This document shows, piece after piece, positions 33,001 to 36,000 of a stretch of DNA of 64,000 nucleotides. Source of the DNA: a virus (lineage: Duplodnaviria > Heunggongvirae > Uroviricota > Caudoviricetes); IMG/VR virus record IMGVR_UViG_2718217885_000009. One strand, 5' to 3'. Position numbers: made by a program. Position 1 is the first letter of the stretch, and each line of letters begins with the position of its first letter.

Positions 33001-36000
33001 AGCAAGCTCCTTTGTGTATCTGGCGTCAAGTTCTGCTACATCACGTTGCCGCTTCTGCATATCTGCGATGATGGATGTGGCTTTATCGCGCTGCTCTTTG
33101 TAAGCGATGGCGTTATCACGGTAATGATTCAGCCCCAGACTAAGCGCACCACAGACCACCAGCAGAATAACGGTAAACGCGGAAAGCATTCGGTTTATGC
33201 TCACCCCACCAGCCCTGCCGAAGTCAACGCCATCCAGTTTATGGAAAGAAAAAGAACAACCAGCATTAGTGAAAATGAAATACCGACGATTACACAAAGG
33301 CCCTTCGCCAGCGTTATGAGTTTATCCGATATCATTAGCCACCACTCCATCAATCCGCCTTTGTTATTTTCCCTTTGCCTGTATCAGCCAGGACAAAATC
33401 AATCAGCAGATTCGCTTCGTTTATCAATGTGCGGATTTTTGATACATGCGCGGCTTTAACCTGTTTCCACTCATTCAGCCCGGTAGCAAACACACTGGCA
33501 ATGTTTTTATCCCGTTTCATGTCAGCGCAGGCCTGATTGAGTTCTTCCATCACACTCATTCGACGGGGATTAACGACACCCCCCTTCGTCCAGTATTCAT
33601 AGAGAACATCGTCGCACTCTTCCTGATACTGGATTACCTTGTCGCGGATTTCGGGTTTTACTTTGTTGGGATTGATGGTTTGTAACCAGCCTGCAAGTTT
33701 TCGAAGTGGCAGGGACACCATATTGCGTCGTTTCCCATCCTCAGCAACCATAACGATTTCCGTTATAGTTGACGCAAAACGCTGTCTTAACTTAGCCAAC
33801 TGTGATTGCCAGGCCAGCCCCATCCCCGCAACGACAGGTTTCATGGGAACGTATGGCTCACCGTTATGGTTAACCACATAAAGAGAATCGCCGTGAAACG
33901 GCACGGTCATCATATTCATCGGTTATTTCCTTTTAGTGATGAACCCTGCGCACAGGAATAACCAGCCCAAAGAGGGTTAACCAGACCACTGCCGGTTATC
34001 CACCAGGGCTCATCCTGAAAGGTTCTTTGGTTTATTTACGCTTGTGCGAAGCGCAGAAATGACAAAGACACCATTACGGTGCCTCAGCGTGAAACAATCT
34101 TCCTGACTTTATTCACTTGCATTTTGCCAGTTCGCAGGATTTCGTGTTATCCGTCCGCGTGAGCAAACGTCATTTTTCAGCAAAATATTCTGCTACCTGT
34201 CGATACCCCAGCATGCCAGCGCACTCTCCTGGTCGCGACGGGATACCTGACCGTAGCAATTATTTGAGCGGATACGGCAGTCTCTGCCACCGTCCTTAAT
34301 CCACCAGCGAATCGCTTCACACGCTCCCCTGCGATCGCCTGCATTAATTCGTTTATAAAACGTCGACGGGAAACACTTACCGGGGCCAATGTTGTAAGGA
34401 CAGAATGACGCGATCCCCGCTTTCTGAGGTTCGGTCAGTGGCACTCTGATGTTTTTCGCCACCCATGCCAGCGCCTTATCACGTTCAATGGCGTTAACCT
34501 GGTCGCATTTTTCCTTCGACAACTTCATGCCGGGGACGACAAGCTTACCATCCACCTGGGTGGCACCACGGCAGATGGTCCAGATACCCACACCATCACG
34601 GTATGCCGTGGTGTGGTTGCCTTCCTTTTCATCCAGAAACTGGTCGAGGATTTCAGGCGCAGAAGCACCTGCGGCAATCAGCGCCAGAACGGCAGCCGAT
34701 AAACCATAGCGGAGTTTCCTGCTCATCAGCTTACTCTCCCCGTGCCGCCTTACGCCTGTCCTCTCTGATTTTGAAATACAGGTTCGTCAGGTACGTCAGC
34801 AGACCAAACAGCAGACTCCCCAGCACGCCTATTGCCGCCCACTGAGACGGGGAAACCCTGTCCAGCAACTGCAGGAACCAGTAGCCCGTTCCCACCGCTG
34901 ACGTGGTGTATGACACACCTGTTGTGATTTTTTCCATCTGGTTCATACCCCGCCTCCCGCAATCCGGAAGCTCACAACAATAAAAAAGACCACCGGCACA
35001 CACCGATGGTCCCTGACGCATGCTTACATCATCATGTCGCTGTCCGGTGTGGGGTCACCGCTATCTGAAGCACTCCCCTCACCCGCGATGCCTTCCGGCT
35101 CCGGAGCTGCCGGTGCGCCCAGCAGTTCATCCAGAATGGCATCCACTTCTGCATCAAGACGCGCTTCCAGGTTATGGCGAAGTTTCTGTTTCAGTGCGCT
35201 CCGGACTTCTTCAGAGCGCAGGACTTCCTTCACTGCTTCAGCAGTGACCAGGGATGTAATTTCTGACATGGGATTTTCTCGTCGAAAGATGTGATTAAGA
35301 AAGTTGCCGCTAAATGAGCGGCTCTTCGGGTTTGCTTCCGGCTGACTGACTGGCGCTGATTTTCTCAGCGGCCCTTTTGTCAATCTGTCTGCGCCAGAAG
35401 TCACGCATGGCCCTGTACCCACCCGAAAGGAGATACAGCACACAGACCACCGTACAGAAGTACAGCATTAACTGGTTCAGAAATGTCATAATTTCTTACC
35501 GTTATGGTTGACTAAGTAAACAGTTTTCATTTAAAAATGCCGATGACGAAAGTGGTAGTATCTTTCCTTGATTCTCCATGAATCTCACACCGCCAGAGGT
35601 CTCAGGCAACTGGCGGCTTTTTTTATCATGCCGCGGCATCCGCGTTGTTCACTTCCACCGCAATGCTGTCAATCAGCACCGGGTAAGTCGCATTCCTGGT
35701 AATGTCTGTCACATGCAGTTTATCCGCCGCAAATGCACTGACCGGTGACTGCGTCAGCGTGAACGGTGTGCCATCCTGACCATCAATAACCGGCGTCACC
35801 TGAAGGCTGTTATTCCCGGCAAAGCGGAAAGCCAGCATATGCCATTCGTTATCAAATGCGCCAAAGGTTCCCAGTTTCAGGTTGTTTGTCGCTACTTTCG
35901 CATTGTGGTACATCACATTCAGGTCTTTTGCATCTGTCTGGATGTAGAACGCTGCCAGCAGGTTATTCCCCCCGTCTCCGGTCAGGGCAACGCCCTGTGG

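Follow-up and report, generated by a model that had tools for sequence, protein, structure and literature searches.

A candidate small RNA gene between nanS-p and the lysis genes of a Stx2a phage, a probable allele of the PasA/PasC-EcOnc51/52 locus

The small RNAs (sRNAs) PasA (85 nt in its major and 236 nt in its minor form) and PasC (79 nt) of the enteropathogenic Escherichia coli (EPEC) strain E2348/69 are encoded on the strand opposite to their flanking genes (PMC8550237, Table S6). They are supported by RNA-seq coverage, Northern blot, RNA interactions mapped by ligating and sequencing (RIL-seq) and a reduced stability without Hfq, and rank among the most abundant and the most interaction-rich sRNAs of EPEC (PMC8550237). 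EcOnc51 and EcOnc52 (Tree et al. 2014, PMC4104026), named as the homologues of Pas in enterohaemorrhagic E. coli (EHEC) in Table S6 of PMC8550237, are likewise abundant and bound by Hfq, and correspond to Hfq-CRAC (crosslinking and analysis of cDNA) peaks of EHEC Sakai in the same place and orientation (PMC4104026). Core and accessory mRNAs are described as partners with which the Pas sRNAs pair in trans (PMC8550237; Zhu, Shabalina & Storz 2026 preprint), and PasA is reported in the Pas literature to pair with the mRNA of the neighbouring esterase. A survey that employed BLAST and cmscan with the E2348/69 sequences found matches in 43 phage genomes, with few Stx2 phages reported and 92% of the PasA-carrying phages encoding stx1 (Zhu, Shabalina & Storz 2026 preprint). 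The present analysis concerns a 64,000-nt stretch of DNA from a virus of the Caudoviricetes (IMG/VR record IMGVR_UViG_2718217885_000009; hereafter the window), in which positions 35508-35624 of the plus strand are interpreted as a gene for an sRNA of this kind.

The site of interest is the 136-nt spacer separating nanS-p, the gene of a SASA sialate O-acetylesterase, from the gene of a 59-aa protein of the DUF1378 family. The late operon of the window is Q-dependent and runs in the minus-strand direction, and the segment 35250-35700 is 100% identical to O104:H4-type phages encoding Shiga toxin 2a (Stx2a), such as P13374, phiON-2011 and others. An original prediction, made from the sequence of the window, had proposed at this site a plus-strand promoter and terminator giving a short RNA antisense to the leader of a toxin-like open reading frame (ORF). 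The reading favoured here, with a probability of roughly 0.78, is that 35508-35624 constitutes a free-standing prophage sRNA gene, an allele of the PasA/PasC-EcOnc51/52 locus, whose product presumably depends on Hfq and has targets in trans. The locus as such, with the SASA esterase gene on one side and the lysis cassette on the other, recurs in hundreds of E. coli prophages. The grounds for the reading are the sequence features, their conservation, the covariation in the terminator stem, the positional equivalence to the Pas and EcOnc sRNAs and a published transcription start site (TSS) in a sister allele; the allele found in the window, termed V1 below, is presumed to be expressed likewise.

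As proposed, a sigma-70-type promoter (TTGACT, 18 nt, TAAAAA) would start transcription at about 35546, and a strong Rho-independent terminator (35590-35616 followed by U7) would end the RNA so that a single nucleotide separates it from the stop codon of nanS-p, which is convergent with it. The RNA would be made in the lysogen (the TSS of the allele of phage 933W was seen in stationary phase) and would be bound by Hfq via the terminator and the U-tail. Its allele-specific, C/U-rich and single-stranded body would base-pair with mRNAs in trans, such that a swap of the body between the fixed promoter and terminator would change the target specificity.

Sequence features and comparison with the Pas sRNAs

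The elements of the candidate gene, as located by sequence, folding and homology, are as follows.

35508-35513, plus strand: -35 box TTGACT (sequence), 18 nt from the ATG of DUF1378 on the opposite strand
35532-35538, plus strand: A-rich -10 region TAAAAAT (sequence), with five A
35546-35624, plus strand: predicted 79-nt sRNA, with the 5' end placed by homology to the TSS of the 933W allele and the 3' end at the U-tract
35590-35616, plus strand: terminator hairpin (folding) with a 7-bp GC-rich stem, CCGCCAG/CUGGCGG, and an inner 3-bp helix
35618-35624, plus strand: U7 tract (sequence), the termination site and probable Hfq-binding 3' end

The arms of the hairpin (CCGCCAG at 35590-35596 and CTGGCGG at 35610-35616) are followed by a C at 35617 and by the U7 tract, which stops 1 nt short of the TCA at 35626-35628, the plus-strand form of the nanS-p stop codon. 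The hairpin has an energy of -16.3 kcal/mol (z = -3.76) and none of 200 shuffled sequences folded equally well. Since the minus strand downstream of it reads UGUGAGAUUC and has no U-run, the hairpin is an intrinsic terminator for plus-strand transcription only, as had been predicted for the 3' end of nanS-p. The hairpin, whose stem is broken by an interior loop, was not picked up by a simple terminator scanner. The promoter can be read as TTGACT-18-TAAAAA or as TTGACT-19-AAAAAT; of the TTGACT-18-TAAAAT originally suggested, the -35 box and an A-rich -10 are thus present, while the exact hexamer TAAAAT gives way to TAAAAAT. For the relaxed pattern TTGACW-N16-18-TAAAAW, one occurrence was found in the window where 0.08 would be expected.

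The 5' part of the predicted sRNA is largely unstructured and C/U-rich, with the terminator lying 3' of it, and the whole 79-nt RNA has a minimum free energy of -23.3 kcal/mol (z -2.70). Its conserved segments are ACGAAAG at +1 and CUCCAU at 35575-35580, the latter kept in the alleles V1-V3. No Rfam family was found at 35508-35624 with cmscan (E <= 1, positions 30000-42000), and a literature search with the hairpin sequences returned no paper containing them. A 45-aa minus-strand ORF (35502-39) and the plus-strand ORFs crossing the terminator gave no family matches, and a coding function is disfavoured because the indels between the alleles are non-triplet.

The Pas and EcOnc genes occupy the same slot, between the SASA esterase and the holin/lysozyme genes and on the opposite strand, in the prophages PP2 and PP5 of E2348/69 and Sp4 and Sp12 of Sakai as in the window; in each case the gene is antisense to the late operon and converges with that of the esterase. 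The layout of PasC and EcOnc52 comprises TTGACA, an A-rich -10, a 66-79-nt body, the arms AGCCAGCG...CGCUGGCU and U7, and their U-tract touches the esterase stop codon as it does in the window, while PasA and EcOnc51 represent a second module placed in tandem upstream of the PasC-like one. Common to the Pas/EcOnc genes and the window are a TTGAC -35 box, an A-rich -10, the GCCAG/CUGGC terminator core, the U7 tract, a C/U-rich segment before or inside the terminator and a similar length (66-85 nt against 79 nt predicted). In an alignment of ten alleles the invariant columns are TTGAC, GCCAG, the CUGGC-type arm (with C-GGC invariant) and the T-run. The differences are that the body of the window RNA is unrelated in sequence to Pas and its stem is extended outward (CC/GG) and not inward, that the allele group of the window is always accompanied by DUF1378 and DUF826, both of which are lacking from the four Pas/EcOnc prophages named above, and that this group is found in about 300 phage records, mostly of Stx2a phages, as against the 43 phage genomes of the Pas survey. 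The window RNA is thus assigned to the locus of Pas and to the kind of gene found there, as a diverged allele lying outside the published family definition.

Tandem, complete promoter-terminator modules were observed in E2348/69 PP2 (locus L001, 2366-2645) and in Sakai Sp12 (locus L084, 1405-1686). The 236-nt minor form of PasA ends at the second of the terminators and is therefore probably a read-through product. HnrS (EcOnc10-12, 66 nt), considered as another possible counterpart, was excluded, as its place in Sp12 is some 3 kb further downstream.

Allelic variation and transcription of the locus

Loci were gathered in IMG/VR via the esterase C-terminus (83 loci) and via DUF1378 (79 loci with the ORF located), and further alleles were obtained from E. 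coli genomes, phage records and metagenomic contigs. The spacer was found to exist as at least six discrete alleles: V1 in the window, V2 in 933W and Sakai Sp5, which is the commonest, and V3-V6. All of them keep TTGAC[A/T], which is separated by about 18-25 nt from the ATG of DUF1378 on the opposite strand, an A-rich -10 at 17-18 nt past the -35 box, and a GC-rich hairpin with a T6-T8 run that abuts the esterase stop codon, whereas the 45-75 nt between these fixed elements vary through substitutions and through indels that are non-triplet. None of the ten aligned alleles, PasA/PasC and EcOnc51/52 included, departs from TTGAC. As the -35 box, the hairpin and the T-run are fixed in every allele around a diverging body, chance is ruled out as their origin, and the pattern of a fixed promoter and terminator with a variable body is the signature of an RNA gene.

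The spacer is an island of divergence in a comparison of the window with 933W, where the nucleotide identity is 98.2% for nanS-p and 100% for DUF1378 but 72%, with 26 gap columns, for the spacer. This island spans 35490-35625 in the window and 28611-28744 in the 933W locus (L166); DUF826 is likewise only 79% identical. V1 and V2 remain clearly homologous by blastn, with about 75-80% identity and E-values of 1e-20 to 1e-34. The terminator is the sole conserved structure in an alignment of V1-V3, and across 15 alleles four of its base pairs are altered on both sides in a way that maintains the pairing (C-G/A-U; A-U/G-C, with one A·C intermediate; C-G/U-A; and G-C/A-U/C-G). These pairs were counted with a script anchored on the stem core, as a MAFFT alignment of the hairpins misplaced the 3' arms of PasC and EcOnc52. 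Some allele of the locus is present in 996 of the 5426 complete E. coli genomes, and in the phage collection the spacer DNA was found in 307 records and the DUF1378 protein in 309, mostly of Stx2a phages.

Two of the gathered variants deserve separate mention. V6 (loci L171-L178, at about 2365-2500 on the minus strand of each) is the most diverged allele, with an A-U to G-C change in a stem pair that is invariant elsewhere (GCCGG/CCGGC) and a strong GGGAGGG Shine-Dalgarno sequence before DUF1378. In Sakai Sp5 (locus L085, 4004-5313) the 3' part of nanS-p is interrupted by IS629, and the V2 sRNA module downstream is intact.

Evidence for transcription comes from the V2 allele. In a Cappable-seq study of EDL933, a TSS on the minus strand was called at 1358689 in two kinds of culture, stationary M9 and stationary acid (PMC10469882, Table S6). 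This position falls between the 933W esterase (1356672-1358609) and DUF1378 (1358744-1358923), and its base is the A of ACGAAAGU, located 7 nt after the TAAAAA of a TTGACA-17-TAAAAA promoter; from there to the U-tract's end the distance is 79 nt. As ACGAAAGU is retained in the window with its A at 35546, the RNA is predicted to extend from 35546 to 35624 and to measure 79 nt. A TSS call alone is weak, since the dataset contains many antisense TSSs; the weight of this one lies in its coincidence with the predicted promoter geometry and the terminator. The original prediction of a 75-nt plus-strand RNA at 35545-35620 is hence upheld as regards a short, independently transcribed RNA of about 75-80 nt, for which the 933W TSS, the Pas/EcOnc sRNAs at the same site and the stem covariation all argue, and is corrected as regards the ends.

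Counter-evidence, DUF1378 and alternative explanations

Several observations weigh against an sRNA gene of the Pas kind at this site. With the 18-nt spacing, the -10 element does not end in the canonical T, and a strict promoter scan of both strands of 34000-37000 returned no promoter-like site, as the scanner demands a T at the sixth position of the -10 and a spacer of 16-18 nt. The transcript support stems from the 933W sister allele and not from V1, and there the TSS was called in only two of the eight conditions, in a dataset rich in antisense TSSs. Neither the Hfq-CRAC sRNA list of Sakai (Tree et al. 2014) nor the tables from RNase E CLASH (crosslinking, ligation and sequencing of hybrids) have an entry for the copy of the locus in Sp5. 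When the PasA, PasC and EcOnc51/52 modules were combined into a covariance model, it recovered its own members at 64-99 bits but, with the filters off, gave no match at E <= 10 at the window locus and only a marginal one (23.6 bits, E 0.012) to the 933W/Sp5 allele. Because the covariance model misses the window allele, the kinship to Pas rests on position, architecture and the short conserved cores. In favour of the sRNA gene, on the other hand, a promoter-to-terminator nhmmer profile, built from Pas and V4-V6 with V1-V3 omitted, had its top match, full-length, at 35509-35624 (plus strand), albeit at an E-value of only 0.034.

The search for trans targets within the window is a further point against, as it yielded none that was convincing. 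The k-mers complementary to the RNA were within about 2-fold of the numbers in shuffled sequences (16 against 7.5 ten-mers and 62 against 33 nine-mers), and duplexes of the RNA with the regions around the starts of nanS-p, DUF1378, DUF826, holin and lysozyme had energies inside the background. A 9-nt perfect complement exists between nt 31-39 of the sRNA (35576-35584, CCAUGAAUC) and the nanS-p start region (37560-37568, minus strand, GAUUCAUGG). It was rejected as evidence for a target, being absent from the 933W allele and, with nine-mers about 2-fold over shuffled, probably due to chance.

The genes and signals of the late operon that bear on the alternative explanations are the following.

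35626-37563, minus strand: nanS-p, SASA sialate O-acetylesterase of 645 aa (Pfam DUF1737, SASA and DUF6645)
35310-35489, minus strand: DUF1378 gene, 59 aa (Pfam PF07125, E 2e-39; phrog_494, of unknown function)
35024-35269, minus strand: DUF826 gene, after DUF1378 in the late operon
35014-34985, minus strand: late-strand hairpin resembling an intrinsic terminator (13 pairs and a T-run), past the stop codon of DUF826 and ahead of the holin start
34731-34946, minus strand: class II holin gene, after DUF826 in the late operon and followed by the lysozyme gene

The 59-aa minus-strand ORF of the original prediction is therefore a genuine gene, that of DUF1378, and its likeness to small toxic membrane peptides extends to its size, a single N-terminal hydrophobic helix and a charged tail, while it matches no toxin family among the Pfam, PHROG and NCBIfam toxin models. 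If the locus were of the type I toxin-antitoxin kind or otherwise cis-antisense, the plus-strand RNA would pair with the nanS-p/DUF1378 spacer of the late transcript, to which it is by definition fully complementary, and by triggering cleavage or blocking a standby site would keep DUF1378, and perhaps the holin, silent in lysogens. A divergent antisense RNA against a 5' untranslated region is a known type I layout (tisB/istR-1, zorO/orzO), and the window shares with these systems, as with shoB/ohsC and hok/sok, a small hydrophobic ORF beside a short divergent RNA that ends in an intrinsic terminator and is complementary to a region upstream of the ORF. The sRNA promoter diverges from DUF1378 only 18 nt from its ATG, and in enterobacterial prophages DUF1378 is always found beside the sRNA module (79 of the 79 IMG/VR loci with the ORF located, and further contexts), the phage records of protein and spacer agreeing closely (309 against 307). 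However, the 5' end of the RNA is placed 56 nt upstream of the ATG, from which transcription leads away, spanning -57 to -135 relative to the ATG in the polycistronic late transcript. It is thus antisense to the spacer, as had been predicted for the leader, but stops short of the ribosome binding site and covers no coding sequence. Unlike the toxin genes of those systems, DUF1378 is a conserved late-operon gene for which no minus-strand promoter of its own was detected in 34000-37000 and which lies inside a Q-dependent operon, and the late-strand hairpin at 35014-34985 already parts DUF826 from the holin. The two also occur singly: E2348/69 PP2/PP5 and Sakai Sp4/Sp12 have sRNAs that agree in position and architecture but no DUF1378, the DUF1378 gene of three V6 loci (L176-L178) carries a nonsense codon (47 aa) beside an intact sRNA module, and in the Stenotrophomonas phage BUCT709 the start of a DUF1378 homologue overlaps the preceding ORF of the lysis cassette, hence leaving no room for an antisense gene. 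Finally, the alleles differ in their sRNA bodies next to a DUF1378 gene that is 100% identical (window against 933W); a cis-antisense RNA remains complementary through any change, and its own target therefore gives no reason for discrete alleles. A type I or other cis-antisense arrangement is accordingly judged unlikely, and DUF1378 is regarded as a neighbour of the sRNA in the late operon and not as an established partner.

Among the remaining alternatives, the element could act solely as an insulating terminator that stops plus-strand transcription from the lysis/bor side before it collides with nanS-p and stx2, the promoter being fortuitous or weak and the RNA without function. The position of a plus-strand-only terminator exactly at the nanS-p 3' end, the imperfect -10 box and the restriction of the EDL933 TSS to two of eight conditions are compatible with such a role. 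It seems quite improbable nonetheless, as the distance between TTGAC and an A-rich -10 is fixed in all alleles, even where the bodies are unrelated or DUF1378 is missing, PasA and PasC at the same site are highly abundant and interaction-rich in EPEC, and E2348/69 PP2 and Sakai Sp12 carry two complete modules in tandem which, each having a full promoter and terminator, make sense for genes and not for an insulator. It is very improbable that the conserved element is a 3' stabiliser or processing signal of the late minus-strand mRNA with an incidental plus-strand reading. The same highly conserved stem does form in the late transcript right after the nanS-p stop codon, but the conserved T-run belongs to the plus strand, appearing on the late strand as an A-run before the hairpin where it has no stabiliser role, the upstream promoter on the plus strand is conserved as well, and the TSS and the mature sRNAs of the sister alleles map to the plus-strand equivalent; a late-strand role of this sort and an sRNA gene could also be compatible with each other. 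A more far-reaching proposal extends the sRNA gene to a hypervariable 'cassette slot', in which interchangeable bodies (at least six alleles, together with the tandem duplications) would rewire host mRNAs in trans according to the allele and at the same time apply a cis brake to leaky DUF1378-DUF826-holin expression in lysogens. This combination appears rather unlikely; were it true, a type-I-antitoxin-like safeguard would be built into Shiga-toxin phages. The free-standing sRNA gene allelic to Pas thus remains the preferred reading.

Two side observations concern the late operon. The DUF1378 homologue of BUCT709 (vB_SmeS_BUCT709, locus L170, 2001-2153) has 50 aa, about 40% identity and the same LLYF...LYLV-GGYK motif; it stands last in a lysis cassette, after the lysozyme gene and an unknown ORF, whose stop codon it overlaps. 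This occurrence suggests, from sequence comparison, that DUF1378 is a membrane protein of the lysis cassette reaching well beyond the phages of E. coli; a protein scan of the genome contigs for DUF1378 gave no confirmed relative. A hairpin comparable to that at 35014-34985 also precedes the holin in E2348/69 PP2, and without antitermination by Q the hairpin of the window would keep the lysis genes insulated from the block of nanS-p, DUF1378 and DUF826.

Other phage sRNAs and implications

Other known or probable phage sRNAs were located in the window as follows.

37715-37767, plus strand: AsxR (Rfam, 88 bits)
37769-37974, minus strand: STnc100 (Rfam, 208 bits)
39794-39823, extending up to about 40051, minus strand: probable tR'/StxS 3' end, a hairpin UGCCAGCC...GGCUGGC with U6 (sequence)

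AsxR and STnc100 form a convergent pair between stx2B and nanS-p, in agreement with the EcOnc02/EcOnc27 pair of Sakai Sp5, and on account of this pair on its other side nanS-p has antisense sRNA genes at both ends. AsxR and AgvB (Rfam RF02703 and RF02702) resemble the window RNA in being short prophage sRNAs of the moron region, antisense to the late operon, and in that the terminator module is conserved and the 5' region variable, the latter setting the specificity in AsxR/AgvB. AsxR itself, 2.1 kb from the predicted sRNA, differs in its locus between stx2B and nanS-p and in its conserved 3' module; the 3' module of about 42 nt of AsxR/AgvB had no Rfam match at 35508-35624 (cmscan, E <= 1), and a sponge function for the window RNA is not indicated.

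StxS, the pR'-tR' sRNA of Stx phages, binds Hfq and accumulates in stationary-phase lysogens, being a sense-strand by-product of terminated late transcription that is processed by RNase E (PMC7547250). The window element differs from StxS in having its own promoter and lying on the opposite strand. The hairpin at 39794-39823, located upstream of three tRNA genes and with a GUAUU site about 80 nt before it, has the same stem core, GCCAGC/GCUGGC, as the Pas terminators and was the only match of the Pas covariance model in the window, albeit a weak one (12 bits, E 3).

The finding is a modest extension of known biology and introduces no new principle. An sRNA gene that is unannotated and probably Hfq-dependent appears to lie beside the nanS-p and lysis genes of the best-studied Stx2a phages, among them 933W, Sakai Sp5 and the phage of the O104:H4 outbreak, and because some allele is carried by about 300 phage records and by 996 of the 5426 E. 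coli genomes, the sRNA family may be far more widespread in Shiga-toxin phages than reported. The body is exchanged among phages that are otherwise almost identical. If the alleles differ in their targets, closely related lysogens of Shiga toxin-producing E. coli would differ in their post-transcriptional regulation.

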